Below are positions 9,941 to 64,000 of a stretch of 64,000 nt of DNA, piece after piece. The translations under genes and the position numbers were made by a program. How positions within the stretch are numbered: the first letter of the stretch is position 1; each line of letters opens with the position of its first letter. This DNA is from Candidatus Latescibacterota bacterium (GTDB taxonomy: Bacteria > Latescibacterota > UBA2968), in assembly GCA_965207885.1 (NCBI GenBank), contig OZ242311.1:2688001-2752000 (forward strand), written 5' to 3'. The notes beneath the pieces were generated by a model. It was not told where the DNA came from. It worked only from the letters and a program-made list of their open reading frames with translations, and did not search any database.

Positions 9941-10000
9941 ATTGTAACGCTCCTTATCTTCAGCCCCATTCATATGCCCGGCAACCGCATAACTAAAGCC

Positions 10001-22830: not shown

Positions 22831-22902
22831 TTATTTTCCAGGCGGGCAGATCGGGTCTATCTTGTCCGCTTTATCGAGCTCGCCGTCGGCAACATTCTGT
22901 TT
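22831..22902 (-). pseudogene. 3'-end remnant of an aldo/keto reductase allele
   Basis: Reads KQNVADGELDKADKIDPICPPGK* versus KQNAAAADGELDKATLDKIDTICPSGKSA* at the end of 37031..37969. Confidence 0.85.
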
Positions 22903-30105: not shown

Positions 30106-30137
30106 TTCGGTTGGCAGCTTTAATGTAGTTCTCTCGG
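30066..30137 (-). pseudogene. 3'-end remnant of a TIM-barrel isomerase allele
   Basis: 70/72 nt identical to 32022-32093; both differences are synonymous. Confidence 0.9.
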
Positions 30138-32014: not shown

Positions 32015-32872
32015 TTAACTTCTCTGCACAGCAAAACCGGCTTCTTCGAGAAGGTGTATGATTCGGTTGGCGGCTTTAATGTAGTTCTCTCGGCCGGAGA
32101 CGTGGAATTTCTGAGAATGAAGCAAGTGCGGCTCTACGGTGATACAGCCTGAGTAGTTCATTTGGCAAAGGCGTTTGAAGATTTCGGGATATCCGCATTT
32201 TCCGTCGCCAGCAATGCAGTAGGTGCTGGTGTCGCCAGGTTCTCGAATGTCTTTGACGTGGACATTGGTGATGTAATCTTTCAATTTTTCAAAAATGTCG
32301 ATTCCAACTTCGCCGTGTGCACCAAAGTTGCCGGGGTCAAAGTTGAGTCGGAAATTCGGAGAATTAACAGCTTGAAGTGCTCTTAAACATTCGGAGGCGG
32401 TGCAGACGGCGGACGTTTTATTGGGTGGATTTTCGAGTATAAGGATTTTATTTTCCGCGGCAGCTATTTCGGTCATTGCGGTGTACATTTCAATGGCGAT
32501 TGCAAACCAGTCGGTTCCTGCGTCGCCTTTTTTATATCCCATCGTGCGCAGTTGGATTGTGCCAACGTAGTCGGCACGTTGAACGGCGCGGGTGATGTGC
32601 GATATGTCCTGTGCGCGATTGGCTTCGTCGGGTACTGTGCGACCCACCTGACCGAGATAAGTGGTGACGGTAAAACCCCGTTCTTTGACACGGTCTGCGA
32701 CACGGACGAACGTGTCGTCATTCATCTGGTCAACCATTTCACCATAGGCCGCACGCAGTTCAATAAATTTGATGCCAAGTTCATCAAGCACATCCAAACC
32801 TTCGTCCAGATCCCACGATGGACTGGGTTCGTCGTTAACACCGGCAATGCAGACGGTTGGAGTTGTGTTCAT
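32015..32872 (-). CDS. Sugar phosphate isomerase/epimerase (TIM barrel)
   Basis: IELR, LEN, NFDPGN, VHVKD, VEPH. Confidence 0.85.
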   Translation of the reverse strand: MNTTPTVCIAGVNDEPSPSWDLDEGLDVLDELGIKFIELRAAYGEMVDQMNDDTFVRVADRVKERGFTVTTYLGQVGRTVPDEANRAQDISHITRAVQRADYVGTIQLRTMGYKKGDAGTDWFAIAIEMYTAMTEIAAAENKILILENPPNKTSAVCTASECLRALQAVNSPNFRLNFDPGNFGAHGEVGIDIFEKLKDYITNVHVKDIREPGDTSTYCIAGDGKCGYPEIFKRLCQMNYSGCITVEPHLLHSQKFHVSGRENYIKAANRIIHLLEEAGFAVQRS

Positions 32873-33785: not shown

Positions 33786-35357
33786 CTAATGGGCTCCGAT
33801 CACCACCAGGTCACGCGGTGGTAGCGGGAATTCCTGGAGCATGACGCGGTGCATCATTTCCTTCATCAGTTGCTGACGCGCCTGCTGATACGCCGGATCA
33901 TGCACGACGTTGACCAGTTCGCTGGAATCTCTGGTGAGATCGAAGAGTTCTTCCCCGTCATCGCGCCCCGGCGTGATCGAGTAGCGGAACTCACGGTTTC
34001 GCAGTGTCTCTTTCCAGGGAAACTTCATGATCCCTTCATGGAAGGGCGACTCGCACAGGCCGCCGAATGACTCGGAGAATGCCGACTGCCGCCAGTCCGA
34101 AACCCGCTTTCCCTTGCACAGAGGCATCAGCGAACGGCCGGCACATAGCGGATGGCCATCGCCGACTCCACGCCGCGACAGGGGCCTCGGGTGCTGTTCC
34201 AGAAGCGTTTCGTGCATATCCAACACGGTAGGACAGATGTCCTCGTGCTGTACGAAGAGGTCGCAAGTGCTACCCTGCTTCAGGCCTGGTCCGGCTACAA
34301 TCAGCGGGATGCGGATGACGGCGTCGTAGTGTCTGGCGGATTTTCCACCCAGATTGTGGTCCATGAGCATTTCGCCGTGATCGGAGACGAAGATGAAGTA
34401 GCTATTCTCCATCCTGCCGACCTGTTCCAATCGTTCCAGGATGCGGCCGATCTGTTCGTCGATGTGGATAAAATCGGCGAAGTAGAGTTTGCGGTAGTAA
34501 CGCCAGTTCGGTATCCTGTCAGGCCCATTCCAGTGATCCGTGCCGTAACCGATAGGGTCGGGGATGAGATCCTCGTTGACCATCTCCAGGAATCGCGCAG
34601 GTGGATGAAACGGGGGGTGGGGCTGCACATAGCTGATATGCGTGTAGAGGGGTTGATCCACGGGCGTCTCGTCGATGAAATTTAGAGCATGTTCCGTAAT
34701 CCAGTTGGTCTGGGAGATCTCTTCGGGGAAGGGCAGGGGATAGTAGCCTTCGGTGCGGGTTTTGTTCCCCCCGTCATCGCCTTTAGCCCATGCCATTTTC
34801 TTCTTTGCCCGGCGCATCCTTTCGGTCAGGTTGACTTTCCGCTCGCCATACGAATCGTAATACGGCAACTGAGAATTCCAATTTGCCGGGGTTGCCATGA
34901 TCGCATCATAGTGTTCGGGATGCTCTTTTTCGATCCAGTCGTGCCACTCGCCAGTCCGGTTGTCCTCGGTGTTGTACACCACATCCCAGCCATATTCCCG
35001 GTAGTCCGGGTACGGGTAGTATTCCGAGTCAAAGGGATAGAAGTGGATCTTGCCAAATGCGCTGGTTCGCCATCCGGCCATCTGCAATGTCTTCATGAAG
35101 GTGGGGATGTCGGGATTGAGCCGGTAGCCATTGGAGAGCAGACCGTGGCCTCGGCTGGTGAGTCCCGTGGCAATGCCCGCCCGAGCCGGACAGCAGACCG
35201 GGTTGTTGGAAAACGCATTGGTGAAGGTCACGCCCATGCTCTGGAGACGTTTCAGGTTCGGCAGGTCACAGATGCCGTTCAAGGCCGCTTCCAACCACTT
35301 TGCCCCCATCTGATCGACCATGAAGAAGATGATGTTGGGTTTGTTGTTTGGGTTCAT
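33786..35357 (-). CDS. Sulfatase (Cys-type)
   Basis: PNIIFFMVDQ, CCPAR, GKIH, SDHGE. Confidence 0.9.
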   Translation of the reverse strand: MNPNNKPNIIFFMVDQMGAKWLEAALNGICDLPNLKRLQSMGVTFTNAFSNNPVCCPARAGIATGLTSRGHGLLSNGYRLNPDIPTFMKTLQMAGWRTSAFGKIHFYPFDSEYYPYPDYREYGWDVVYNTEDNRTGEWHDWIEKEHPEHYDAIMATPANWNSQLPYYDSYGERKVNLTERMRRAKKKMAWAKGDDGGNKTRTEGYYPLPFPEEISQTNWITEHALNFIDETPVDQPLYTHISYVQPHPPFHPPARFLEMVNEDLIPDPIGYGTDHWNGPDRIPNWRYYRKLYFADFIHIDEQIGRILERLEQVGRMENSYFIFVSDHGEMLMDHNLGGKSARHYDAVIRIPLIVAGPGLKQGSTCDLFVQHEDICPTVLDMHETLLEQHPRPLSRRGVGDGHPLCAGRSLMPLCKGKRVSDWRQSAFSESFGGLCESPFHEGIMKFPWKETLRNREFRYSITPGRDDGEELFDLTRDSSELVNVVHDPAYQQARQQLMKEMMHRVMLQEFPLPPRDLVVIGAH

Positions 35358-37030: not shown

Positions 37031-37969
37031 CTATGCTGATTTTCCGGACGGGCAGATCGTGTCTATCTTGTCCAGGGTGGCTTTATCGAGTTCCCCATCG
37101 GCAGCGGCAGCGTTCTGTTTTGCCTGCTCGGGTGTCTTCATTCCGGGAATGGGGCAGGTAACGGCAGGATTGGCGAGGGTGAACCTGAGCGCGAAATCAA
37201 CCATGTTCATGCCTTCGGGTACTAACTCGCGCAGTGCCGCAACCTTGTCGAGTTTGGCGAGGAAATCATCGCGTTGACTTTCTCCTGGGTTCCAGTGATC
37301 TCGAACCATGTCTTCAAACCTTGTATCTGCGGTAAATTTATCCGCCAAAAGACCCTGAGCTATTGGTCCTCGCAGTAATACCCCGATATTGTTGTCCAGA
37401 CAGTGGGGGAGGATGTCATTCTCAGGCCTCCGGTTAAAGAGTGAGTAGTTGATCTGACACGATGCGCATGCGCCCTCTGAGTTGAGCGCTTTGAGCGAAT
37501 CCAGATCGTTGGTGGATATCGCGTAGTGACGGATCTTTCCCTCTTTCTTTAACAACTCAAAGGCTTCGACAAAGATTTCGGGATGTTCCGGGGTTCCGAT
37601 GTGACACTGATACAGATCGATATAGTCTGTATTGAGCCGGTAAAGGCTTGCGTGACAACAATTTATGATGCTGTATATCGTCTTGTACCCGAGAGGATCT
37701 CCCTGACGGCGTCCCCAGTTGCCAACCTTTGTCGCGATATAGACCTCAGATCGCTTGCTTTTCAGCGCTTTGCCTGTGTAGATTTCACTCTGACCACAAC
37801 CGTAGCCATCCGCGGTATCAAACAAATTAACGCCCGCATCAAGGGCAGCGTTGATGGTGTCGAGGGCCTGTTTTTCTTCAACCGGGCCCCACTGTCCGCC
37901 GATGCCCCAGCATCCCATGGAGACAGCGCTTACATTCCACCCAGTTTTCCCAAGCGTTCTATACTGCAT
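37031..37969 (-). CDS. Aldo/keto reductase
   Basis: RTLGKTG, FDTADGYG, ATK, YIDLYQCH, IPG. Confidence 0.9.
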   Translation of the reverse strand: MQYRTLGKTGWNVSAVSMGCWGIGGQWGPVEEKQALDTINAALDAGVNLFDTADGYGCGQSEIYTGKALKSKRSEVYIATKVGNWGRRQGDPLGYKTIYSIINCCHASLYRLNTDYIDLYQCHIGTPEHPEIFVEAFELLKKEGKIRHYAISTNDLDSLKALNSEGACASCQINYSLFNRRPENDILPHCLDNNIGVLLRGPIAQGLLADKFTADTRFEDMVRDHWNPGESQRDDFLAKLDKVAALRELVPEGMNMVDFALRFTLANPAVTCPIPGMKTPEQAKQNAAAADGELDKATLDKIDTICPSGKSA

Positions 37970-38831: not shown

Positions 38832-38898
38832 AGGTTGACTCCTTTCCAGTCTCTGTAGATGTGTAACAGTTTTGTAGGCGAGTTGAAATGTTTGTCCT

Positions 38899-41409
38899 TC
38901 AGTCTTTTTTTAACTCGGGAATATTGTTCGGCATAAAAGATATCTCTCGCATACCTTCGTCGCCCAAAAACTGAATTGTAACACCACCACCTATGGATAG
39001 CATGTGCTGCAAATCCTCAATATTTCTCACCTTCGCATTGTCCACAGACAAAATTACAGTATCGCCCAATAACCCTACCTGAGCGGCTTCTGACTCTGCT
39101 GGAACATCAATTACCAAAACACCATCATTGTGCTCTAATTCCACAGCCCCAATCACCGCAGATTCCCTACCATAATTTACCAGACTACGCAAGGTCGCCC
39201 CCATCCAGTCATACAGATCAGCATTGACATAGGTGCCCCAAAACTCAGCGTTTTTATCAAACGCTTGCCCCAGACCAGACCAGATGCGCACGTCAGATTT
39301 GAACCTCGAATCTTGCACACCAAATTGATCCATAGGGAAATTTTCAAATCCGACCTCAGATCCAAATTTCGCCCGATAATCTCCAGATGATGGATTGTAA
39401 AAACCTGGATCACATGTTTTCGAATGCACGTCCAGACCCAACGCCCTGTGATCTTCCGGAGGCTCATAAACCGCAAACAGATTTTCATCCACCAAATTAT
39501 CTTCGCCCTGGCAACCCGCCATTCCCATTCCACGCGGTGAATAAGCTTCTCGACGAACAAGAATATTTCGCCGAACCACATCGCCGCTATTGGGATACCA
39601 AACGTGTGGGCTGAATAAGGTAGAAATATTGTTCTCTACAGTTCGAAAAAAGCCTTCACGCAACTTGATACCACCTTGCAAGCACAAATTGCCATAAATG
39701 TGATAATGCCCAGACCCATCGTCTAAATCAATATCGTATCCATGCGCACATTGAATCCGATTGTGGCGCAAAGCAATTGGATCGACACAATCCAGCTTCG
39801 CCATCGTGCGCATGCGGGCGAATTCTTCAGGTGTTGCCTCGCCCTTTAGCTTCATCCAGTACCGATCCCGTCCCCACGAATTATAAGCTCCGTGTTCTCG
39901 CGTGGTCATTGACGTATCAAAAATATCGTTCCATTCAATCACATGTCCACCCCAACATCCATCGTTCACATTGATCGCAGCACGCGGCACATCGTAAATA
40001 CTATTATGACTGACTGTAATCTCTTTGGCCTTAGAAATGAACACACCGGCAATCTGTTTCTCTACACTGCCCAACTGCGTCATCAAATTGTCGTGAATCA
40101 CACACCGGGCCGGATAATTATTGTTCTGAGGCCCTGCTTCTAAATCGACCAACTCCTGTCCTTCATCCAGCATTTCAGACGGCAACTTTGCCATACTCTC
40201 ATTCTCAAATGGCCTGCCATTTACCATCGGTGTTTCACCCCGCATACCTTCAGGCCACCCCCACCAATGTGCCCATCGCGACCTCACGGCAGAATTATTT
40301 CCCTCAAGTAAAACAGCACTCGCACCCGTCTTTACAAACCGACACCCGCTCACAGTGACGTCCCGACTATAATCTTGAATAAAAACCCCATTCCCACCTA
40401 TGCGCTCAAACGAGCAATTTTGAACGGTGCACAATTCAGCGCCTTCAAAAACAACAGCGCCTCCCCGATACACCTTCCAATCTCCACCACTTGGTATGAC
40501 ATCCGTTTCCATAAACGTGTAAGACGTATGGGTCAGTGTCAGCCCATCCAGAGTGATATAACAAACGGGGTTGTCCTCCGACCCTCGAAACTCAAACAAA
40601 TGCCTCAGCACCACAGCTTCCACTGTGGCATCGTCAAGAGTCTGTCCTTCTTCAGGCTTGAAATACAGTGTATGAGTTTCTCGATCTAAAAACCATTCTT
40701 TAGGCGCGTCCAATTCTTCAAACACGTTTTCAATAAACATCCGCCCTTCAGCCAACACATCATACGGATTGGTTCTTCGCCCACTGTTTTGCCACCCACC
40801 TTCTACCTTCCGATCCTTCTCGTACTCAAAGGTGTAAACCCCATCTGGATCTTTTTCCAAAATACGAAAGTGCAATGTACCCCACCCCATCGACATCATC
40901 CCGTGTACAAAAGCACCCACCGGATTGGCATATCCTTTTAAGCGCGCCGAATCAATGGCATCTTGAGAGGTCTCTGGCGAAACCCATCGAATGCTGCCAT
41001 CAAAAAACCCATCTCGCGGATCAGCATTTGGATAGCGACAGCGAACCATCTTTTCACCATTGATAAAAAGCTGATCAAAATCCAAGCCCTCAGGCACCTT
41101 AGCCTTCACCAGCCCATCTCCGGCGTTTTCCCAAATCAAGTTCACAGACTCTGCCCCACTAACAACAACCTCTTCGTCCTCATAAGCCCGATAAACAATG
41201 GGCGCATCTTTCGTCCCAGAATCTTCTGCACCAAAAATGAGCGTCTCGTTCAAATAGTAAGTTCCCTGTCTCAAACACACTGTTATCGGCCCGTTTTGTT
41301 TGCATGCACGAACAACCTCTTGCGCCCGTTTTAGCGTAGCAAGAGGTTGTTCTTCGGTGCCAGAATTTCTATCGTCACCTTTAGATGAAACAAAAAGCGT
41401 CTGCCCCAT
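38899..41409 (-). CDS. Right-handed beta-helix protein (GH141-like) with C-terminal PDZ-like domain
   Basis: FVSSKGDDRNSGTEEQPLATL start, beta-helix repeats, DIDLDDG, PDZ-like tail; start MGQTLF after aaggag. Confidence 0.65.
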   Translation of the reverse strand: MGQTLFVSSKGDDRNSGTEEQPLATLKRAQEVVRACKQNGPITVCLRQGTYYLNETLIFGAEDSGTKDAPIVYRAYEDEEVVVSGAESVNLIWENAGDGLVKAKVPEGLDFDQLFINGEKMVRCRYPNADPRDGFFDGSIRWVSPETSQDAIDSARLKGYANPVGAFVHGMMSMGWGTLHFRILEKDPDGVYTFEYEKDRKVEGGWQNSGRRTNPYDVLAEGRMFIENVFEELDAPKEWFLDRETHTLYFKPEEGQTLDDATVEAVVLRHLFEFRGSEDNPVCYITLDGLTLTHTSYTFMETDVIPSGGDWKVYRGGAVVFEGAELCTVQNCSFERIGGNGVFIQDYSRDVTVSGCRFVKTGASAVLLEGNNSAVRSRWAHWWGWPEGMRGETPMVNGRPFENESMAKLPSEMLDEGQELVDLEAGPQNNNYPARCVIHDNLMTQLGSVEKQIAGVFISKAKEITVSHNSIYDVPRAAINVNDGCWGGHVIEWNDIFDTSMTTREHGAYNSWGRDRYWMKLKGEATPEEFARMRTMAKLDCVDPIALRHNRIQCAHGYDIDLDDGSGHYHIYGNLCLQGGIKLREGFFRTVENNISTLFSPHVWYPNSGDVVRRNILVRREAYSPRGMGMAGCQGEDNLVDENLFAVYEPPEDHRALGLDVHSKTCDPGFYNPSSGDYRAKFGSEVGFENFPMDQFGVQDSRFKSDVRIWSGLGQAFDKNAEFWGTYVNADLYDWMGATLRSLVNYGRESAVIGAVELEHNDGVLVIDVPAESEAAQVGLLGDTVILSVDNAKVRNIEDLQHMLSIGGGVTIQFLGDEGMREISFMPNNIPELKKD

Positions 41410-41412
41410 AAA

Positions 41413-41580
41413 ATCACTCCTTATCATAACCTGTTTTTCGATCTCCATCGACTTCCTTAGACCAGGTCGCGTACAGTTCCCAGGCATTAATGCTTTTCAT
41501 CTCTTATCCTGTCTCTGTGGATGTGTAAAAGGGCTGATCACGATATTCGGGTAGGAACCGCTGTTGTTATCACCCATCAT
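41413..41580 (-). pseudogene. Mosaic spacer of four gene/leader remnants
   Basis: MMGDNNSGSYPNIVI start; 22/25 match to 38845-38869; 17/18 match to 47631-47648; 30/34 match to 47655-47688. Confidence 0.75.
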
Positions 41581-42887
41581 CACGATCCTTTCGCCCGTTG
41601 AAACCAGTCAATGAGTTGGCTTTTAAGATCGTTATAAATCTCAGGATATTGACTGGCCAAATCATTGGCTTCGCCAATATCCTGATCGAGCTTGTACAAT
41701 TCAAATTGCAATTCTTCAATAGCCGGAATAGCCTCGGCAAATTGCCCGCGATGATTAGGGCCTGTACCAACCAGTTTCCAATCGTCTTTTACCGCTCCCA
41801 TTTTCCCAAACAAATCCCAAAACACATACCGTCCTGGCAAATCTTCTTGCCCATGTGATCTCAAATGCGCAAGCAAACTCACTCCATGAACTGGATGCTG
41901 TCCATTCATTTTGGGAATCTCAATGCCAGCCGCATCCAGCACAGTGGCAAACAAATCAAAATGCACAGCACCTGCATCAGATACCATCCCTTTGGGAATA
42001 ACACCCGGCCACTGCATCACCGCAGGCACGCGGATTCCACCTTCATATGTCATTCCTTTTTGCCCGCGTAAAGGGCCATTATTGCCCGGAAATTTATCAA
42101 TCATTGCACCATTATCGCTCAAGTAGATGACAAGTGTGTTATCTACGATAGCCAACTCATGCAATGTCGCCATGATTTTACCCACACCATCATCCATATG
42201 ATCCAGCACCGCACAATAGTCGCGCTTGGGGAACTCAATACCGCGATCTTCATACTTTTTTAACCACTCGGCTTTGCCCGATGTTTTGGGTGCCTGTTCT
42301 CGCCACAAGGGACCATGCACAGCATTGTAAGGCACATAACAAAAAAACGGCTTATCACGATGTTTCCGAATAAAGTCAATCGCATAACCAGTAAACACAT
42401 CCGTCAAATGATCTTCATGCACCATGGGCTGGTCATTGTGCAAAAGGCGACTACCATCAAAAGGCCAATAGGGGTGTGCACCACCCAAAAATCCGACAAA
42501 TTCTTCAAAACCGCGTTCATTGGGCACATTGGGTGCATCATATCCCAAATGCCACTTGCCAAACATGCCAGTTTTATATCCTGCTTCCTTCAAAAACTCG
42601 GGCAAAAGTTTTACATCATCATGAATGCGCCTTGGCAACGTATCTGTTTTCTGCCCCGGCAGTGATGGGCCACGCCACATGCCGCATTCCAAAGAATACT
42701 GCCCAGAAAAAAGAGATGCACGCGTTGGCGCACAAAGTGGATTGACCCTAAACTGTGTAAAACGCACCCCATTTTTTGCAATCGCATCCATCGTTGGTGT
42801 ATCGACCTCTGTATCCCAATAACAACCCGCATCTCCATACCCCTGATCGTCTGTAACAATGATGAGAAAATTTGGTTTTGTGGCCAT
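41580..42887 (-). CDS. Sulfatase (Cys-type) with chimeric 5' end
   Basis: PNFLIIVTDD, CAPTR, GKWHLG; 42841-42895 is 54/55 identical to 48988-49042. Confidence 0.9.
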   Translation of the reverse strand: MATKPNFLIIVTDDQGYGDAGCYWDTEVDTPTMDAIAKNGVRFTQFRVNPLCAPTRASLFSGQYSLECGMWRGPSLPGQKTDTLPRRIHDDVKLLPEFLKEAGYKTGMFGKWHLGYDAPNVPNERGFEEFVGFLGGAHPYWPFDGSRLLHNDQPMVHEDHLTDVFTGYAIDFIRKHRDKPFFCYVPYNAVHGPLWREQAPKTSGKAEWLKKYEDRGIEFPKRDYCAVLDHMDDGVGKIMATLHELAIVDNTLVIYLSDNGAMIDKFPGNNGPLRGQKGMTYEGGIRVPAVMQWPGVIPKGMVSDAGAVHFDLFATVLDAAGIEIPKMNGQHPVHGVSLLAHLRSHGQEDLPGRYVFWDLFGKMGAVKDDWKLVGTGPNHRGQFAEAIPAIEELQFELYKLDQDIGEANDLASQYPEIYNDLKSQLIDWFQRAKGS

Positions 42888-42892
42888 AATGA

Positions 42893-43339
42893 TCATTCCT
42901 TGAGTGCGGCAGCATCCTCAGCGATCCACTTCGATCCAGTCGTGCCACTCGCCGGTCCGGTTGTCTTCGGTGTTGTGTACCACATCCCAGCCGTGTAGTC
43001 CGGGTACGGGTAGTATTCTGAGTCAAAGGGATAGAAATGGATCTTGCCAAACGCGCCGGTTCGCCACCCGGCCATCTGCAATGTCTTCATAAAGGTGGGG
43101 ATGTCGGGATTGAGTCGGTAGCCATTGGAGAGCAGACCGTGGCCTCGGCTGGTGAGTCCCGTGGCAATGCCCGCCCGAGCCGGACAGCAGACCGGGTTGT
43201 TGGAAAATGCATTGGTGAAGGTTACGCCCATGCTCTGGAGGCGTTTCAGGTTCGGCAGGTCGCAGATGCCGTTCAGGGCCGCTTCCAGCCACTTCGCCCC
43301 CATCTGATCGATGATGTTGGGTTTGTTTTGTGACTGCAT
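42893..43339 (-). pseudogene. Collapsed sulfatase-sulfatase-PhyH pseudogene
   Basis: First 8 codons match the gene starting at 37020, the body matches the 5' part of the gene starting at 35357 with deletions, and the tail WIAEDAAALKE* resembles WSAEDAADLKN* ending at 32888. Confidence 0.9.
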
Positions 43340-43401
43340 AATGACTCCCCTGATGCGCTCTTTGAGCTTTTTAGTCGATAATCTTTGTTTCTACAGTCAT
43401 T

Positions 43402-44748
43402 TTATTTTTCGAAAATTGTCCCGGGCCACGGGTAAGCGTTGGATCCAGCCTCATCCTCGATGGGGCCTTCCGGCAGTGTGGCTTGCCAATCCATGACCTG
43501 CTCTGACATCTGCTTGACCAGGGTCTCTTCAAATTTGGCGTGATTGACGAGTTCCATTGGATCTGCAGGAATGTTGTAAAGTTCGACACGACTTCTGTCC
43601 GGGTTGAGAAGCAGCTTCCAGTCACCCTCGCGGATTGAAAGGATCGGGCTTTTGTGAAGGCAATGGCCGTGAACCCGAAATCGCCACTCCCACATCAACG
43701 GCGTCGTGCGATCTACCGAGTTACCTCGAAAGGCGGCTGTCATATTCTCGCCCTGCAGACCAATGTTGTCGGGAATGTCCACGCCAGCGATGGAACAAAA
43801 AGTAGGTAACAGGTCTATGGCACATAAGGGCGTCGTGTTGTCAACTTTGCCTTTTGGTCCGCCACTGCCTGGCCACCGAAGAATGAAAGGGGTTCGCACA
43901 CCGCCTTCGTAGAGGCTTCTTTTACGACCTCGAAAGGGACCAGAAGAACCGACGCCACTGTGTGACGCATTTCGGACGTGGATATCCTCAGGGCCGTTAT
44001 CAGCTGAGAAGATGACAATCGTGTTGTCGGAAAGGCCCAGTTGATCCAGCCGATCCATGAGCCGTCCAATGTGGTAATCTGCGTTGGTAACGACAGAATA
44101 GTAGATGCGTAGTGCACCTTTGTGTTTGTCTTCCAGGCCCTGAGCGGTAAGATTCATATAGGGTTCCATCTGCTCCTCTGTAGGATCCAGAGTGGCGTGG
44201 GTGTCAAGCAACCACGCTTGAACAAAGAAAGGCTCATCTTGATGTCTTTCGATGAAAGATATGGTTTCATCTATAATTACCTCTGTAGATTGAGATCTGC
44301 CTTCGGGAATCTCAATGGGGGGTCCGACCGCATTGAATGTTTTGGATTCGTCAATTCCATAAGCCGTGGTATTAGGTGCTTCTTCGCCACTTCCCAGGTG
44401 CCACTTGCCAAAGTGGCCAACAGCATATCCACTTTGTTGCAGGAGATCCGTGATGGTCGTTGCATCGGGATCCAACCAATCTGGCATGCCGCGTAGGGCG
44501 TTCTGCTCGTGACGGGCAAAATGGCCATGTATGCCCCAGTGGGCAGGAAATCGACCCGTCATGACCGCTGCCCGGCTGGGTGAGCACACACCCGAGCAAA
44601 CATAGAATTGTGAGAAGAGAATGCCCTGCGAAGCGAGCCGATCCAGATTTGGCGTTTTTACAAACTGGTGGCCGTAGCAACTCAAGTCACCCCACCCCCA
44701 ATCGTCGGCGAAGACAAATACGATATTGGGTCTTTTCGATTCAGCCAT
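43402..44748 (-). CDS. Sulfatase (Cys-type, arylsulfatase-like)
   Basis: PNIVFVFADD, CSPSR, GKWHLG, DNG. Confidence 0.9.
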   Translation of the reverse strand: MAESKRPNIVFVFADDWGWGDLSCYGHQFVKTPNLDRLASQGILFSQFYVCSGVCSPSRAAVMTGRFPAHWGIHGHFARHEQNALRGMPDWLDPDATTITDLLQQSGYAVGHFGKWHLGSGEEAPNTTAYGIDESKTFNAVGPPIEIPEGRSQSTEVIIDETISFIERHQDEPFFVQAWLLDTHATLDPTEEQMEPYMNLTAQGLEDKHKGALRIYYSVVTNADYHIGRLMDRLDQLGLSDNTIVIFSADNGPEDIHVRNASHSGVGSSGPFRGRKRSLYEGGVRTPFILRWPGSGGPKGKVDNTTPLCAIDLLPTFCSIAGVDIPDNIGLQGENMTAAFRGNSVDRTTPLMWEWRFRVHGHCLHKSPILSIREGDWKLLLNPDRSRVELYNIPADPMELVNHAKFEETLVKQMSEQVMDWQATLPEGPIEDEAGSNAYPWPGTIFEK

Positions 44749-44788
44749 TGCGGTTCTCCTTAATAAAGTAGGCGGTAAGCCTTTGCCC

Positions 44789-46129
44789 CTACGATGCCAG
44801 GGCTTTCAGGTAGGTGGCGCCTTGCGTGTCGGCGTGTGCCTGGACCCAATCAGATAGTCGGTTTCGGTGATCCGTCAGGATCTGAATGAATTCAGGATCA
44901 TTGGCGAGGTTCTTTGTTTCAGTGGGATCCGAAACCATATCGACAAGCATTTCTTCCGACGTGCCATCGTAGTGGAAGATGGAGTACTTGTACCTGGCAG
45001 ACCTTACCATTCTACCGCCAACAGTTTCGGCAACGACGAATTCCCGCCAATCGGGTTGCTCGCCCAGAGCAAGGGGTTTCAAGCTTCTACCGGGTAGTGA
45101 ATCTGGAATTTCTCCTTTGGCAAAGTCGCATAACGTCGGAAGCAGATCGATCCCATTATTGACCAAAGCATCGATCTGACCTGGAGAAACTCTTCCAGGC
45201 CAACTGATCGTGAGCGGTACGTGTGACGACGCTTCGTAGAACGACCGCTTCATTGTCAATCCGTGTTCCCCATCATGATCGCCATGGTCACTTGTAAATA
45301 TGACAACCGTACTCTCCCGCAGACCGGTGTCATCGAGCGCATCCAGTATCACACCCAACTGTTGGTCCAGGTCCTCCATATAAAAACGGTAAGCCGCACG
45401 GTAGGTCCGCCACTCGTGTTCGGTCCAGTGGATTGCACGCTGACCGAATCTTCGGTTGAGGCCGATTTCGATTGTCTCCTCGTCTCCCAGTGTCCCATCA
45501 CGGAATCTCTGCATCCACTTTGGCTCATCCTGAGGGGGTGCGTGATTATCCGGCAAGGGAGGCAAGTTGTCTCCTGGATCCGAAGGATGTGTCGGCTTCC
45601 CATCCTCATCCAGGACTTTACATATATCGTGTGGATTAATGAACGATGCCCAGAGGAAGAACGGGCGATCGGAATCTCTGTTTTTGAGAAAATTAGCAGA
45701 TCTCTCCGCAAGCTCATCCCTCTGATCGGTTGTGAGCGACTCAAATCCGAATTCCTCTGCCTTTTCTTTTGTGAAAACCTGGGTGCCCTCTACGTGCAGC
45801 TTACCGCCGGCGTACGTATCATATCCACAATTTCGGAGGAGTGTCCCCATCAATGGCGTATCAATATGGTCCAAAATCCGCGGATGTTCCGAAGCCATCC
45901 CCTTGGAGTTATGCTCCAGGCCATCAAAAGTGTGCGGCATATGGCCTGAGACCAGGGCGTACCTGAATGGGACACAAACTGGATTGGAAACGTAGGTGAG
46001 CTCGAATCTCTTACCACCTGCAGCCAGTTTATCCAAATTGGGCGTACTGACATAAGGGTCACCGGAATAGCTCGCCATTCTGTGATGTTGTTGGTCCGTT
46101 GTTATGAGAATGATATGCGGTCGTTCCAT
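44789..46129 (-). CDS. Sulfatase (Cys-type, choline-sulfatase-like)
   Basis: PHIILITTDQ, CVPFR, GKLH, SDHG; start MERPH after aaagga. Confidence 0.85.
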   Translation of the reverse strand: MERPHIILITTDQQHHRMASYSGDPYVSTPNLDKLAAGGKRFELTYVSNPVCVPFRYALVSGHMPHTFDGLEHNSKGMASEHPRILDHIDTPLMGTLLRNCGYDTYAGGKLHVEGTQVFTKEKAEEFGFESLTTDQRDELAERSANFLKNRDSDRPFFLWASFINPHDICKVLDEDGKPTHPSDPGDNLPPLPDNHAPPQDEPKWMQRFRDGTLGDEETIEIGLNRRFGQRAIHWTEHEWRTYRAAYRFYMEDLDQQLGVILDALDDTGLRESTVVIFTSDHGDHDGEHGLTMKRSFYEASSHVPLTISWPGRVSPGQIDALVNNGIDLLPTLCDFAKGEIPDSLPGRSLKPLALGEQPDWREFVVAETVGGRMVRSARYKYSIFHYDGTSEEMLVDMVSDPTETKNLANDPEFIQILTDHRNRLSDWVQAHADTQGATYLKALAS

Positions 46130-46169
46130 ATCTGTTCCTTTCGCGTTGCGGACGAATTGTAGCAAGATG

Positions 46170-47642
46170 TCAACGAGGATCGCCAGCTTCAATTGTTCGT
46201 TCCAGCAGCCTGCTGCGCATTGCTTCTTCCCGATCTCGATAATCCGGATTTCCTGCCAGATTCACCAGTTCGCCCGGGTCGTTCTGCAAGTCGTAAAGTT
46301 CAGAACGATCATTCACATAATGTGCGTATTTCCACTTCTCGTTTCGAACCATGCGACCCCGAGAAAGGAAGAACGTTCCCGACTCAACCAGCGGCAATTC
46401 AGGTACGGGCTCCGTCCGACTTATGCCGGCTTTCAGCGCGTCCAGTTCTGCTTCTGGTCCTCCCTCTGGCAATGGCTGACGGCTGCCAACTTCCGCATAG
46501 GTACAGTCTCTTTCTGGAGCCATACCCGACATCATATCTGTCACACTTCTACCCTGAACACCCGACGGGATCGAGATTCCGCTACTCTGGAGTAATGTGG
46601 GCATCAAGTCGATTTGCTCAATTTGCAGTGCGTTTGTTGCACCATCCCGTGCATGTTCCAAACCCCTTACGATCAATGGGACCTGGACAATGCAGTCGTA
46701 GAATGCAGCAGTTTTCCTAATGAGTCCGTGTTCGCCCAGGTACTCACCGTGGTCACCTGTGGCAACAATGATGGTGTCGTCCCAACGACCAAGCGCTTTT
46801 AGTCCATCAAAGAATTTGCCCAGGCAGTCATCCAGGTGCCTGAGCATGCCGTAGTAATACGCCATTGTCTGGCGCAGTTGCTCGTCATCCATGAGATGCA
46901 GCCACCCGCCGTGATAATAGACTTGCTGAACGAATGGTTTTGAGTCCAATTCACCCTCAGGTCTATGTGGGAGAGGCATGTCCTCTGGCCTGTACATCGT
47001 GGCAAAAGGTTCGGGAGCTCGATAGGGCGGATGAACATCGGAAAAGCTCAACCACACAAACGAGGGCTCGACACCCTTCCGTTCGAGATAATCGAGGGCA
47101 TGATTCACGTTGGCTCTTGCTGGAGATTCAGCAGGATCGAAAGGGTAGGTTCCGCCATACCAGATTGGGTTTGGGTGATCTCCCCAACGGAAACGTCTTG
47201 TTTGTGATTCGAACACGGATGGGTCGATGGGTATTGCAGGCCCAGGAAATGGCTTCCCATAGGCTTCTCGCTGCTTTTGCCGAAGTGGTGACTCTTCAAT
47301 ACACGCTTCAAATCCTGCAGTTTCGGCATCTGGAAAACAGTGGTTTTTCCCAAATAGGCCACAGCCGACACCAGCATCTTTCAATAGCCCTGGCAGGTGA
47401 AATCCTTCCTTTTCTTGCATCAACAGCGTGTTGTCTCTGGAACCTGTAACGCTGGGATAACGACCCGTGAAAAATGCGACCCGTGATGCGACGCAGAGCG
47501 GAGAAGGTACGGTGCAGTTTTCAAACCTGATGGCTTCGCTGGCAAAGCGATCCAGATGAGGTGTCGCTCCGACGGGATTGCCATAGCATCCCAATGCGCG
47601 AGCGGCAAGATGCTCAATGGTGATTACGACAATGTTTTTCAT
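46170..47642 (-). CDS. Sulfatase-like hydrolase
   Basis: NIVVITIE, CVASR, GKNH, GDHGE. Confidence 0.85.
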   Translation of the reverse strand: MKNIVVITIEHLAARALGCYGNPVGATPHLDRFASEAIRFENCTVPSPLCVASRVAFFTGRYPSVTGSRDNTLLMQEKEGFHLPGLLKDAGVGCGLFGKNHCFPDAETAGFEACIEESPLRQKQREAYGKPFPGPAIPIDPSVFESQTRRFRWGDHPNPIWYGGTYPFDPAESPARANVNHALDYLERKGVEPSFVWLSFSDVHPPYRAPEPFATMYRPEDMPLPHRPEGELDSKPFVQQVYYHGGWLHLMDDEQLRQTMAYYYGMLRHLDDCLGKFFDGLKALGRWDDTIIVATGDHGEYLGEHGLIRKTAAFYDCIVQVPLIVRGLEHARDGATNALQIEQIDLMPTLLQSSGISIPSGVQGRSVTDMMSGMAPERDCTYAEVGSRQPLPEGGPEAELDALKAGISRTEPVPELPLVESGTFFLSRGRMVRNEKWKYAHYVNDRSELYDLQNDPGELVNLAGNPDYRDREEAMRSRLLERTIEAGDPR

Positions 47643-47645
47643 CTC

Positions 47646-49034
47646 TTAGCTCCTATCAACTTCCTCAGACCAGGCCGCGTACAGATCCTGCAGGCGTTCC
47701 ACGACTTCGGGATGCTGATCAATCAGATCTTGACTCTCGGAGGGATCTTCCTTCAGGTTAAACAGGCAGGTATTCTGGAGAAGCTCTGTGCGTTCAACGA
47801 TCCCATCGCAGGACGGCTCTTGACCTCTCCTGCCACCTTTATGCAACAGTTTCCAATCACCAGAGCGCACGGCATAACTATCGCCCCAGCGCCAGAAGAG
47901 GTCTCGCTGGTCTGCGATTTTTGTGACATCTTTTGGGATGGGTTGACCATCCAATCCTTCGGATAACTCGATGCCTGCTGCCTGTAAACAGGTCGGAAGA
48001 ATATCGAGCGTTGAGATCGTCCTGTCACAGATCGTTCCAGATGCCGACTCATTTGGACGGGCGAGGATAAATGGCACGTGAATTCCGCCCTCCCAGAGCG
48101 TAAACTTGCTCCCGGCAAGCGGCAGGTTGCAGGCACCGGTGTTCGGTGCGCCTCCGTTGTCTGAAAACATGATCACGATGGTGTTGTCGGCAAGCGATAG
48201 CTGATCCAACGTGTCCAGAAGGCGACCGATATTGTCGTCGAGGCAATTCAGGTTCGCCAGATAGTATCTGCGAAACTCGTCGGCATTGATCTCGCCGAGG
48301 ATTCTATACCTTTTGAACCAGTCCCCATACCCGCCCATGGTCTCCGGGTCGTAGTTTGGAATCTCCCTTACGCCGTGCTTGTCGAGGTATCGTTTGGGCA
48401 CCTGGTGGATCAGGTGATGCACGGAGTTGTAAGAGAGTGTCACAAAGAAAGGTTCTTCCTGATGGCTCTCGAGAAAATCGATTGTCGCGTCGGTGAAGAT
48501 TTCCGTCAGATACCCTTGCCCAAATTCTTTGTAATCCCGGTTGTGCATGAGCGGCCCAACAACCGCGCTGTGCCCTTTTGGATCGGGCGTGCGGTCTTCG
48601 ATGTCTTTGGTGAGGAGGAAATAGTCGTGGCCATGTGCTGAGAATCCGAGAAACTCGTCATAGCCATGGTTCAACGGATATTCGTGAGCCTCGTGATCGT
48701 GAAAGCCCAGGCCGTAATCGTTCTTACCGAAACGCGCTGTGGTATAGCCGTTAGCCTTCATGATTTCGGTGATGTTCTTTTCTGTTTCAGGATGTCCGCA
48801 AAAAAAGGAAGATTTCGGATCCCAACGCACCTGGTGTCTCCCCGTATTCCATCCGGCGCGGGAAGGGCTGCATACAGGAGCTGTCACATAGGCCTGTGAA
48901 AAGAGAACGCCGCGCTCAGCGAGCCGGTCCATGTTTGGCGTTTGCACGTCTGGCGCATGATGACTGAATGCAGTCAGATCGCCGTAGCCCTGATCGTCTG
49001 TAACAATGATGAGAAAATTTGGTTTTGTGCCCAT
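47646..49034 (-). CDS. Sulfatase (Cys-type)
   Basis: PNFLIIVTDD, CSPSR, GKND, SDNG. Confidence 0.9.
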   Translation of the reverse strand: MGTKPNFLIIVTDDQGYGDLTAFSHHAPDVQTPNMDRLAERGVLFSQAYVTAPVCSPSRAGWNTGRHQVRWDPKSSFFCGHPETEKNITEIMKANGYTTARFGKNDYGLGFHDHEAHEYPLNHGYDEFLGFSAHGHDYFLLTKDIEDRTPDPKGHSAVVGPLMHNRDYKEFGQGYLTEIFTDATIDFLESHQEEPFFVTLSYNSVHHLIHQVPKRYLDKHGVREIPNYDPETMGGYGDWFKRYRILGEINADEFRRYYLANLNCLDDNIGRLLDTLDQLSLADNTIVIMFSDNGGAPNTGACNLPLAGSKFTLWEGGIHVPFILARPNESASGTICDRTISTLDILPTCLQAAGIELSEGLDGQPIPKDVTKIADQRDLFWRWGDSYAVRSGDWKLLHKGGRRGQEPSCDGIVERTELLQNTCLFNLKEDPSESQDLIDQHPEVVERLQDLYAAWSEEVDRS

Positions 49035-49063
49035 AATGATCACCCGCTCCAATCCCCGCATTG

Positions 49064-50545: not shown

Positions 50546-50560
50546 TTTGGTTCTCCGTAA

Positions 50561-50610
50561 TCTATATGGTCAGGTAACCAGACCATGGTTCGCTTCTATT
50601 TCCTCTGTTC
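50561..50610 (-). repeat. Intergenic 50-nt repeat, copy 1 (copy 2 at 55938-55988)
   Basis: Differs from copy 2 by 2 substitutions and 1 indel; sits directly upstream of an RBS in both places. Confidence 0.9.
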
Positions 50611-50637
50611 TGCATCTATCCGACTCTGCGCCCCTGA

Positions 50638-55176: not shown

Positions 55177-55923
55177 CTATGCCGTTTCCACTACGTTAGG
55201 ACGGCGGACGGATGGGGGCGTGAGAACGCGTTTTTGTTGCTCGGTCAGGTCTTCGTAGTCTTCGTGATTGTAGTATATTGATGCGTAGGAAGCGTGGCCG
55301 GGGGTGAATTTGTAGAGTAGGGTTCTGCGTTCGTTTTCAGCAGTCCAGGGCAAGGTTCCGTGCATCGTCGCTTCTGTGAAGATGAGGGCGTCGCCTGTTT
55401 CTGCACTTGGATTGGCGAGGTAGTGAGGGATGCGCTTAAAGGAGCGAACATCTTCAGGGACGTTGAGGGCAAAATTGGATTTGTGTGAACCGGGTACGCA
55501 GCAGAATCCGCCAGAACCTGGGGGGGCGGGTGCAAGGAAGTAGACGACTACGGTCAAGCCATTGCGCATGACGCCGTCGCGATATTTGTAATAGTGCGTA
55601 CCCGCACGATGGTCCCCACCATGGAGGCCACCTTTGCGCCCACCTTGACGCATAAAGATGCCGTAGTCGTGGTCGGCACGAAATTGGGGGCCGAGGAGTT
55701 CGCTGAGGTAAGGAATCATGTTGGGGTGGTCAAACAGATTTTGGAAGGGTTTGCCCCAGAGCGAGACTCTGCGGGGAATCTTGAGTCCGTTATTCACTTC
55801 CTCTTGGTCGGCCATTTTTTGATCGGCAATTGCATTGAGTTCGTCTACTTCGGCTTGAGAGAGTACATTTTTGACAACGATGTATCCTTGCAGGTCAAAT
55901 ATGAATTTTTCTTCAAGTGTCAC
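55177..55923 (-). CDS. PhyH family dioxygenase
   Basis: FDLQGYIV, LHGG, VPGSHK, GDALIF, MHGT. Confidence 0.8.
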   Translation of the reverse strand: MTLEEKFIFDLQGYIVVKNVLSQAEVDELNAIADQKMADQEEVNNGLKIPRRVSLWGKPFQNLFDHPNMIPYLSELLGPQFRADHDYGIFMRQGGRKGGLHGGDHRAGTHYYKYRDGVMRNGLTVVVYFLAPAPPGSGGFCCVPGSHKSNFALNVPEDVRSFKRIPHYLANPSAETGDALIFTEATMHGTLPWTAENERRTLLYKFTPGHASYASIYYNHEDYEDLTEQQKRVLTPPSVRRPNVVETA

Positions 55924-55937
55924 GGAGAATCTCCCTT

Positions 55938-55988
55938 TCTATATGGTCAGGTAAACCAGACCCTGGTTCGCTTCTATTTTCTCTGTTC
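55938..55988 (-). repeat. Intergenic repeat, copy 2 (reads as a gene 3' end, TEKIEANQGLVYLTI*)
   Basis: Matches 50561-50610. Confidence 0.9.
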
Positions 55989-56003
55989 CGGCCCCTATCT
56001 TTT

Positions 56004-57634: not shown

Positions 57635-58984
57635 TCACACTTGTTTTCTGCGAAATGCGTGGGGATTTACCATTTCATATCCCCATCGATCCAACAATTC
57701 CTGCCCGTTCTCAAACGCGTCGTTCTGTTCCTTCAACAGATCTGAAAGCAAACCTTCCAGATGCGTTTGAACAGATTCTACCTCAGGCCGACCACAAAGG
57801 TTCTCCAACTGATAAGGATCTGCCTCATTGTCATACAACAACCAGGGCCCCTCCAGGTCACGCACATAAGTATAACGGCTGGTGCGAACGCCCCGATATT
57901 CCCTGCCACCATTTTTATAAGAATAATTGGCAAACGGCACGTAGCATCCAAAAAGTGAAGCCTCCAAAGGCGCATCGGCTTCACCGAGCATGTGTTTGGC
58001 AAAACTCACCCCTTCGACGCCTTCCGGTACAGGCGCGCCCACCAGATCCAACAACGTCGGCATCATATCTGGTATGCCAAAAGGGGTGTCGATTTGGCGA
58101 CCAATCCCATTTGGCAATCGCAACAGAAAGGGCACAAGAATAGATTCATCCCAGGGCCGTATTTTCCGATCATGGCCTTGCGACCCATTCATTTCACCGT
58201 GATCAGAGGTAAACACAAGAATTGTACCCTCTGTCATCCCGAGGCGTTCAAGTGCTTCTTCAACACGCCCAACACAGTGATCAAGTGCCGTAATATGCGC
58301 ATAATAACCCCACATATCATTCCGGGCAATCGCCTCACACTCAGCAGGCACATTGTCTCTCAATACGATTTCATCTTCATTGTAGAGCGCTCTGTATTCT
58401 TCCGGCACTTTGTGGAAAGGGTTATGAGGCGGGCCATATGAAACAAAAAGGAAAAAGGGATCGTCTTCACTCTGCCTGCCCTCCAGATACTCAATCGCAC
58501 AATCGGTCTGTGCAAACGCATCGTATCCTTCCCACTTTTTCATAATGCCCGAGTCATCATAATAGGGCGAATCGTAATAATTGTGCGAGCATTCGTGCGC
58601 GCGCCAAAAGTCAAAGCCCAACCGTCGCTCAGGTGGGATGAAATTTTGCTCGTGGGTATCTCCGTCCAAATGCCACTTGCCAATGTATGCGGTGTCATAA
58701 CCGTGTGACTTTAGAACCTCAGCGAATGTGGTCGTATCGGGCTCAAGCCGAATCTGGTTTAAAAAGATCCCATGCGTCAGTGGATATTGCCCGGTCAAAA
58801 GACAGGCACGAGCCGGACAACAAACCGGGCACGTTGACACAGTCGTATCCAACCGAATACTCTTTTGAGCCAGGGCATCGAGATTGGGTGTCTTAACATT
58901 TGGATCTCCCGTATACCCTGTTGCCTGTGCGCGCCACTGATCGGTCAAAATGAATACAATATTGGGCTTCTCTTTGTTGGCCAC
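57635..58984 (-). CDS. Sulfatase (Cys-type)
   Basis: GTG start after gggagg; PNIVFILTDQ, CCPAR, GKWHL, SDHGE. Confidence 0.9.
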   Translation of the reverse strand: MANKEKPNIVFILTDQWRAQATGYTGDPNVKTPNLDALAQKSIRLDTTVSTCPVCCPARACLLTGQYPLTHGIFLNQIRLEPDTTTFAEVLKSHGYDTAYIGKWHLDGDTHEQNFIPPERRLGFDFWRAHECSHNYYDSPYYDDSGIMKKWEGYDAFAQTDCAIEYLEGRQSEDDPFFLFVSYGPPHNPFHKVPEEYRALYNEDEIVLRDNVPAECEAIARNDMWGYYAHITALDHCVGRVEEALERLGMTEGTILVFTSDHGEMNGSQGHDRKIRPWDESILVPFLLRLPNGIGRQIDTPFGIPDMMPTLLDLVGAPVPEGVEGVSFAKHMLGEADAPLEASLFGCYVPFANYSYKNGGREYRGVRTSRYTYVRDLEGPWLLYDNEADPYQLENLCGRPEVESVQTHLEGLLSDLLKEQNDAFENGQELLDRWGYEMVNPHAFRRKQV

Positions 58985-59053
58985 AAAAACCTCCCTACTT
59001 AATTGCACAACAATCAGAATGCAATCACGATACGAAAAAGTTGTCCATACCTC

Positions 59054-59085
59054 ATGATAATCAAACAAATATTGATAATCAATAT
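59054..59085. promoter_or_regulatory. Fur-box-like palindrome in a divergent promoter region
   Basis: atattgat-a-atcaatat perfect 8-1-8 inverted repeat (59069-59085) plus a second tgataatca core. Confidence 0.45.
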
Positions 59086-59114
59086 AGCCCACAAAAACAA
59101 AAAATGAAGAGTAT

Positions 59115-63556: not shown

Positions 63557-64000
63557 TTAAAAGTTAGCGGACAGTTCGATTCTCTTCATCACCCGCTCCA
63601 ATACCCACACCCTGACGATGCCGTCCCGCTGCCCACCAAGCCCGCTTGTGTAATTGTTCTTTTCGAGTTGCGCATTGTGTTCCGGTCCGAACATCTCCTG
63701 TTTATTTATGGCCTGCTCCAGGGCGGGAATAAGCGGTTTCATGGGCTGGAGTTCTTCGCGGCTGCGGTATGACAGATAGGCACCGGCTCGTAGCCGCGCC
63801 CAGAGGATATCGCTCGACAGCGCGTGCTCAAAAGCAGGCAGGGCAAGGGCGCCTTCGCCTGCCCGCACCAGATAGTCCCCAGCGGCCAGGCTGACGCTGA
63901 TTGAGGGATCGTCAAGGAGGGGGGACAGGCGCTCGATCATCGCGCGTTCCACACCGAGTGAGCAAAGGCCGGTAACAGCCCAGAAACGCACGGCGCTGTC
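63557..64000 (-). CDS. C-terminal HEAT-repeat part of a gene running off the window (possibly a sulfatase-HEAT fusion)
   Basis: AVRFWAVTGL and LLDDPSISVSLAAG HEAT-like repeats. Confidence 0.5.
   Translation of the reverse strand, partial: DSAVRFWAVTGLCSLGVERAMIERLSPLLDDPSISVSLAAGDYLVRAGEGALALPAFEHALSSDILWARLRAGAYLSYRSREELQPMKPLIPALEQAINKQEMFGPEHNAQLEKNNYTSGLGGQRDGIVRVWVLERVMKRIELSANF

Follow-up and report, generated by a model that had tools for sequence, protein, structure and literature searches.

A short, nearly identical 5′ tract, probably left by recombination, at the head of two distant sulfatase genes in a Latescibacterota genome

How do two sulfatase genes whose proteins are 31.6% identical come to begin with almost the same 55 nucleotides (nt)? 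The question is posed by genes A (41580–42887) and B (47646–49034), both on the minus strand of a 64,000-nt stretch of a Candidatus Latescibacterota genome (contig OZ242311.1, positions 2,688,001 to 2,752,000), which was analysed as a whole and is called the window here. A preliminary description of this DNA proposed that a new sulfatase, A, had recombined in frame into a resident B-like gene at a motif conserved in the family and had inherited its translation start. The identity is best explained, and probably so, as a short recombination tract between distant sulfatase paralogues without signal peptides, in a very plastic gene array.

A common start on two divergent genes

On the minus strand, positions 42841–42895 of A and 48988–49042 of B are identical at 54 of 55 nucleotides, as had been reported, and the sole difference lies in codon 2, which is GCC in A and GGC in B. 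This block, designated W, consists of 8 nt of leader and codons 1–16 of both genes, and the resulting proteins start MATKPNFLIIVTDDQG (A) and MGTKPNFLIIVTDDQG (B). A blastn alignment stretches the match to 61/65 (42831–42895 against 48978–49042, E = 8e-18), and upstream of the block the identity falls to 6/24. When A and B are aligned by codon, the first 16 codons agree at 46/48 nucleotides and the remainder at 541/1182 (46%), the best other 16-codon window reaching 32/48. Third positions agree in 15 of the 16 block codons, as against 114 of 394 elsewhere. Block W is also among the nine off-diagonal matches (E ≤ 1e-3) in a comparison of the whole window with itself. Its identity far exceeds chance or family conservation. 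The sharp divergence past the block that had also been described is found both in the proteins and in base composition: the GC content of A is 0.461 (0.421 at third codon positions, GC3) and that of B 0.530 (GC3 0.608), with 0.530 for the window.

Type I sulfatases are characterised by a C/S-x-P-x-R formylglycine motif and by an N-terminal DD that binds metal. Protein A (435 amino acids, aa; Pfam Sulfatase score 197.8 bits) has CAPTR as its formylglycine motif and the N-terminal metal-binding DD within TDDQG, while protein B (462 aa; 183.8 bits, with a cut-off of 25 for both) has CSPSR and TDDQG. By domain score and motifs, both belong to the formylglycine-dependent (type I) sulfatases of PF00884. 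Both proteins start five residues before the first strand and are, on that ground, predicted to carry no signal peptide for export. Among the 120 homologues listed for A, 114 have an N-terminal extension of at least 12 aa (median 25 aa), 109 of these with a hydrophobic run, and such an extension of at least 12 aa is found in 95 of the 120 listed for B. Ten of the 12 sulfatases in the window begin a few residues before the first strand and would therefore lack an export signal, the exceptions being 8588–9973 and perhaps 57635–59092.

Both genes belong to a dense, co-oriented array, which in the window comprises 12 sulfatase genes and one sulfatase pseudogene, nine PhyH-family dioxygenase genes, and genes for oxidoreductases and sugar-acid enzymes. 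Only two of these 13 sulfatase-type starts, those of A and B, carry block W. Relatives were found by one scan of genome contigs with protein A, which returned 79 loci. Seven of them (L001–L007) encode A at 97–100% identity, and the next best locus reaches 58%. All seven are metagenome-assembled genomes of Latescibacterota, and none is the window's own genome. The same gene modules recur across L001–L007 at 86–99.6% nucleotide identity, while the order and presence of modules vary and breakpoints fall at gene boundaries. The A protein of L001 is identical to that of the window, and its flanks are 90–99% identical in nucleotides and arranged differently. L005 is collinear with the window (PhyH1-S2-B-S4-...-S6-PhyH14'-A).

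Native 5′ ends and the mosaic block

L005 provides native forms of both starts. Its A gene has the leader CCAGGTAGATCACT, the protein start MTTKPNIVLVVS and the form ATGACC...TCA, and its B gene has a leader ending in ACAATGTGTATTGAT, the protein start MTSKPNILIIVT and the form ATGACG...ACG. These native starts are identical at only 34 of 47 nucleotides, with GACGATCAGGG as the sole long common stretch, as against 46/47 in the window, L001 and L002, all three of which carry block W at the head of both A and B. A start shared natively by the orthologues of both genes, which would have spoken against recombination, is thus not what L005 displays.

The N-terminus of the closest A homologues was likewise expected to differ from that in the window, and it does. 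L004, L005 and protein P0001 start MTTKPNIVLVVSDDQG, in agreement with the A-family consensus RPNIVLVVSDDQGYGDAGCY. P0001 differs from window A at eight of 435 residues, six of which fall in residues 2–12. IVLVVS is the consensus of the A family and FLIIVT that of the B family (KPNFLIIVTDDQGYADLSAF); the changed residues are hydrophobic for hydrophobic (IVLVVS to FLIIVT), so no functional change is expected. Rooting of the A tree with the 71%-identical P0002 was considered and rejected, as the protein differences are too few (8 in 435).

Substitutions are concentrated in the tract in both genes. Window A differs from that of L004 at seven positions in nt 1–47 and at 16 in nt 48–1308 (Fisher p = 8e-6). 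With respect to the L004 and L005 starts, the seven changed positions lie within nt 4–34, and the leader of window A has a 10-nt deletion relative to L004, L005 and the second A copy of L006. Window B differs from that of L005 at 11 positions in the block and 102 in the remainder (Fisher p = 9e-4); its replaced tract begins about 24 nt upstream of the ATG, extends to about +36, and involves a change of 15 nt in leader length. Around both tracts, the flanking context of the window is conserved in the relatives.

Native A and B differ at 13 sites, at which block W reads aaaaabbbbaaba; it also carries two further substitutions (nt 4 and 19) that are found in neither native gene and are present in all 10 W copies examined. 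With regard to the donor of a non-reciprocal transfer, the block mixes both genes, with eight A-type, five B-type and two new sites. The two new substitutions are common to both W copies, which therefore descend from one another. By part, the leader and codons 1–6 are A-type, and codons 8–10 and 12 are B-type; the GC3 of W, 0.40, is closer to that of native A (0.33) than to that of native B (0.80). B would therefore have inherited an A-type translation start, the leader and codons 1–6 of W being A-type. The converse proposal, that A had inherited the start of a resident gene, does not hold: its leader, its codons 1–6, eight of the 13 sites and its GC3 are A-type, and what A would have received is limited to the B-type codons 8–10 and 12.

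The DDQG-encoding GACGATCAGGG (42841–42851 in A and 48988–48998 in B, minus strand) would be the downstream anchor of the exchange. None of the 12 intact 5′ ends of A and B in the window and the seven loci departs from it, and no other stretch of the 5′ region is free of variation across native A, native B and block W. The last informative A/B site is nt 36, and the next A/B difference after it is nt 48. The idea of recombination at a family-conserved motif is thus borne out as regards the reading frame and the downstream edge in GACGATCAGGG, and needs correction as regards the exchanged segment, which would be the patch rather than the body.

Native B starts are also indicated by proteins. 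Nine of the 12 closest B homologues start MGTKPNF, and the other three, with PNILIIVT at the motif, start MTSKPNI, MMSKPNI and MTKCDSSLPNI. A B tree was built from 25 of the 120 listed hits (P0121–P0145) and four translated B genes after removal of the sequence through DDQG, and P0132 (MMSKPNI) is sister (100/98) to the other 15 members of the signal-less clade. The leader of B in the window (49035–49060, minus strand) is absent from L005 B and partly resembles a gene 3′ end near 63.6 kb: positions 49039–49060 match 63588–63609, the end of the gene that precedes sulfatase 61925–63535, at 20 of 22 nucleotides. This match possibly goes back to a different place in which the block once lay.

Slot, age and flanks of sulfatase A, and the rival explanations

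In the window, A follows the last 35 nt and the stop codon of PhyH14' (42893–42930, minus strand), a PhyH-family gene natively located before A; this segment is contiguous with the full gene in L001, L002, L004 and L005. PhyH14' stands upstream of A in these four genomes and at the second A copy of L006, while PhyH1 and a leader termed U1 occupy that position in L003, L006 and L007. A was thought to sit in the slot of a B-type resident, and is found instead behind the neighbour that it has in L004 and L005, both of which have the native A start. Since A keeps the upstream neighbour of native-start genomes, it is the patch, and not the body, that would have been exchanged in the window.

Synonymous substitutions per synonymous site (dS) set the age of A against that of the surrounding genes. 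The dS of the A body against the seven relatives is 0.004–0.042, that of the adjacent beta-helix gene 0.037–0.041 (against L001 and L002), that of S2, S4, S6 and TIM15 0.08–0.14, that of AKR11 and S12 0.17–0.28, and that of B, S13 and PhyH10 0.24–0.41, with B at 0.24–0.30 against L001, L002 and L005. For PhyH14', directly upstream of A, dS is 0.13–0.26 as against 0.00–0.03 for the A body in the same genome pairs; this comparison leaves out L004, in which a truncated PhyH14' frame inflates the values. The step in age is located at block W. With a dS far below those of most of its neighbours, A is a recently shared body. As all seven relatives have it, it is no newcomer to the window genome, contrary to what had been supposed. 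Two histories fit the age data: either the complete A gene spread recently and later had its start patched, or A bodies were swapped between lineages with a 5′ crossover at DDQG. The former is preferred because the leader and codons 1–6 are A-type and the slot is conserved. A tract of low GC and negative skew extends from about 38.8 to 42.8 kb and therefore covers, besides A, the gene for the 836-aa beta-helix protein (38899–41409, minus strand). This gene resembles A in its low GC, strongly negative GC skew and low divergence, and it adjoins A only in the window and L001.

The remnant of a B-like gene reported downstream of A is real: 41443–41488 matches the last codons of B (47650–47698) at 83.7% over 49 columns (E = 9e-6), and its translation, ELYATWSKEVD, corresponds to DLYAAWSEEVD in B. 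The order after the A stop codon is, however, not that of a gene replaced by the A body, as S4-type sequence intervenes. The 3′ flank of A runs into the S4 leader (41507–41579, minus strand) and is present in all seven relatives to 41520, and to 41489 where S4 follows A. Next come TAAGAG and four S4-type first codons (ATGAAAAGCATT; 41489–41506, minus strand; 17/18 against the real S4 start at 47631–47648), then the last approximately 14 codons of the B-like gene (41443–41488, minus strand), fused to them in frame within a 28-aa open reading frame (ORF; 41414–41500), and finally the beta-helix gene. The sulfatase-like S4 itself (46170–47642, minus strand) follows B in the window. Among the relatives, the A–S4 adjacency is intact in L003, L004, L007 and the second copy of L006, and in L002 with only the first 141 nt of S4. 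PhyH10 follows A in L005 and an AAA_14/DUF4143 gene follows the first A copy of L006, while L001 has the same scar of S4 start and B-like tail as the window, likewise before the beta-helix gene. The remnant thus appears, from this order, to be the scar of a separate deletion that began at S4 codon 5 and stretched into a B-like gene since lost. A leader, TTACACATCYACAGAGACWGGA, is present at both 41501–41531 and 38839–38869 (84% identical); it precedes S4 in relatives and PhyH10 in the window.

Beyond the window, the block is found in new combinations. L003, L006 and L007 have leader U1 (~75 nt), ATGGGC with codon 2 of the B copy, TCA as in native A codon 12, and the A body, and in L001 leader U1 precedes B instead. 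The second A copy of L006 is internally deleted; it follows PhyH14', has the GCC form of W and keeps the leader without the deletion. In the eight genomes, W links four left contexts (PhyH14' with the leader deletion, PhyH14' without it, leader U1 and leader U2) to two bodies, A and B, in five combinations, so W also acts as a crossover point. A chimeric sulfatase pseudogene (42931–43339, minus strand) appears to be a second, independent crossover case, here at the KPN motif, where an S12-type leader and first codons (the leader as in L001 and L006) are joined to a cut-off S13-type body. This body carries a 12-nt deletion (FFMV lost) and a 7-nt frameshifting deletion, the region is 90% identical to 34929–35357, and the Pfam match spans only 21–109 of 301. 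The truncated end is fused to the last 35 nt of PhyH14', so that the pseudogene with this fusion spans 42893–43339, and its leader extends to about 43407.

These features can be accommodated by at least two non-reciprocal short-tract transfers (gene conversion), one from B to A that would have covered codons 8–12 and one from A to B from the leader through codon 12; alternatively, a single hybrid-forming crossover may have been followed by copying. As both parents are present in the window, each in its own slot, non-reciprocal transfer is needed rather than a single crossover. The resulting block of about 60 nt, the sole long identity between A and B, could then have allowed homologous crossovers, both inside one genome and from one genome to another. 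In the window only the patch would have been exchanged, with A remaining in its ancestral slot, and the B-like remnant downstream would stem from an independent deletion by which the end of a vanished B-like gene was fused to S4 codon 4.

Several observations weigh against such an exchange, or at least against a simple version of it. Multiple switches, a donor allele outside the sample or patchy repair of mismatches must be assumed for the pattern aaaaabbbbaaba. The window, L001 and L002 have one and the same B block though their B bodies differ by 6.3–7.6% (the probability of zero differences in its 47 nt is 0.028 and 0.053), and the A/B difference in codon 2 is fixed in the same three genomes; a single old event does not explain this invariance and this fixed difference well. 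As nucleotides, the native B start is known from L005 only, and otherwise from three protein N-termini and the B tree, in which the 15 inner members of the signal-less clade form no resolved order. The sharp age break at the 5′ end of A, moreover, is equally expected from body replacement anchored at DDQG. This rival, in which the A body recombined at DDQG into a resident B-like gene that kept its start and whose 3′ end survives at 41443–41488, would also account for a native A N-terminus that differs, for a young A body (dS 0.004–0.042) beside old neighbours, for the low GC of A (0.46 against 0.53), for the B-like remnant, and for the A bodies of L003, L006 and L007 behind a leader and codon 2 that in L001 belong to B. 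It is nevertheless quite unlikely. The PhyH14' 3′ end stands upstream of window A as in the native-start L004 and L005, the common leader and codons 1–6 are A-type while the native B leader and start in L005 are different, and the S4 leader and codons 1–4 between A and the remnant match the A–S4 adjacency at five related loci. The remnant is, besides, only 84% identical to B, compared with 98% for the 5′ block.

An unsampled sulfatase paralogue that carried the block natively, perhaps together with U1, could have donated it to both A and B, which would explain the substitutions at nt 4 and 19, the presence of U1 with W before either body, and the likeness of the B leader to the gene end at 63588–63609 as a hint of another former neighbourhood. 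Such a donor is unlikely, as native A already accounts for the leader and codons 1–6, in L004 and L005 CCAGGTAG belongs to the stop region of PhyH14', and neither the 64-kb window nor the 79 loci contain a third copy, one loose match (L061) being unrelated. Selection on a translation-initiation or regulatory RNA signal, in place of recent recombination, is very improbable. It would suit a block that does not vary among the B genes of three genomes despite a difference of 6–8% between their B bodies, and that is AT-rich as 5′ coding ends often are; it would not yield identical synonymous sites together with a mosaic of two parents, and of the 13 sulfatase-type starts only A and B carry the block. 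A functional RNA element was considered and rejected: an Rfam scan of the whole window returned zero families, folds of the two 116-nt start regions were no more stable than those of shuffled sequences (z = +1.84 and −1.00), and L004 and L005 are without the block. Least credible of all is a chimeric join or collapsed repeat in assembly. The related records are all metagenome-assembled, yet both W copies recur in the same contexts in L001 and L002, which are separately deposited chromosome-level records of other genomes, so that an artefact can be set aside; the codon-2 difference is alike in all three genomes, and both genes are intact full-length frames. A short recombination tract between A and B remains the probable explanation.

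Boundary repeats of the array and known systems

Similar variation is seen elsewhere in the array, whose modules vary greatly in order, number of copies and age (dS 0.004 to 0.41) among the eight closely related genomes. The slot between S4 and S6 is filled by sulfatase S5 (44789–46129) in the window and by an AAA_14/DUF4143 ATPase gene in four relatives (L002 11594–12742 and L005 6497–7693, and also L006 and L007); in L002 this gene comes after the S4 copy truncated at 141 nt. A 72-nt direct repeat (30066–30137 and 32022–32093, 97% identical), which is the 3′ end of a TIM-barrel gene, flanks a 1.96-kb segment with a GFO/IDH/MocA oxidoreductase, and in L001 and L007 this segment is absent and the repeat is present as a single copy. 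An intergenic leader with the core GAAAATAGAAGCGAACCA occurs at 50552–50620, after PhyH1 and before sulfatase S2, and at 55930–55999, upstream of the PhyH gene 55177–55923 (86% identical); part of it precedes U1 in L003, L006 and L007. A 59-nt copy (81%) of an aldo-keto reductase 3′ end lies beside a DUF4432 gene (22833–22891 against 37039–37103), and a 262-nt fragment of this reductase gene directly adjoins the DUF4432 gene in L003.

It is conceivable, though a long shot, that the block and the repeated boundary leaders (U1, the S4/PhyH10 leader and the post-PhyH leader) constitute a standing cassette-reassortment system without a dedicated recombinase. If so, start modules made up of the spacer and the KPN...DDQG codons would let sulfatase bodies swap in frame behind a few expression signals, within a genome as well as between Latescibacterota species, and young bodies such as A would sweep while their neighbours stay old. 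On the more probable reading of a short recombination tract, the locus offers a base-level view of the reshaping of a large set of sulfatases in an uncultured phylum. Some 60 nt ending in the most conserved motif of the family would suffice to link genes otherwise too different to recombine, and leaders and gene bodies could reassort thereafter. For annotation and gene trees this is a warning that an N-terminus and the body behind it may differ in history, and that the ages of neighbouring genes can differ almost a hundred-fold.

In Latescibacteria, sulfatases have been associated with polysaccharide degradation, with 14 and 3 sulfatases per single-cell genome and presumed substrates (PMC4454575). 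As in the window, PF00884 sulfatases are thus numerous per genome, and the passages of that paper that deal with sulfatases contain nothing on recombination or missing signal peptides. A limited literature search found no published description of such an exchange in bacterial sulfatases: the literature on Latescibacteria sulfatases yielded none on recombination, and that on gene conversion or tandem duplication of sulfatases was all eukaryotic.

Ectopic gene conversion and concerted evolution of bacterial paralogues are the subject of a prokaryote-wide survey (PMC6053082), and gene conversion has been described in multigene families of M. tuberculosis (PMC12046097; PMC13061034). As far as the extracts of these reports go, the present case is like bacterial gene conversion in that the paralogues of one genome are closer over the tract than the orthologues of sister genomes, and in that substitutions cluster in the A/B tract while the flanks keep their orthologous context. 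Judged by the same extracts, it is unlike it in that the tract, at about 47–60 nt between genes 32% identical as proteins, covers the ribosome-binding spacer and the first 12–16 codons, and in that W is a mosaic of both parents and later a reassortment point for whole bodies. These latter joins have a separate counterpart. Unequal crossing-over of tandem paralogues yields chimeric genes and deletions, and the joins in L003, L006 and L007 and the chimera at 42931–43339, located at the N-terminal KPN...DDQ motif, appear to be of this kind.

Integron-type arrays consist of co-oriented, packed gene cassettes served by an integrase and attC sites. The window is like them in that its genes are co-oriented and closely packed and differ in presence and order between close relatives. 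It is unlike them in that spacers are only 3–110 nt and junctions are made up of neighbouring gene ends and short common leaders. A Pfam scan of 48 window ORFs (22 + 26) revealed no recombinase, integrase or transposase domain, and no attC search with a dedicated model was part of this comparison. The case is probably one of gene conversion between paralogues combined with unequal crossing-over, both of which are well known in bacteria, and gives no indication of a novel molecular mechanism. What sets it apart is only that its tract is very short, that this tract includes the translation start, and that the block has been reused as a junction.

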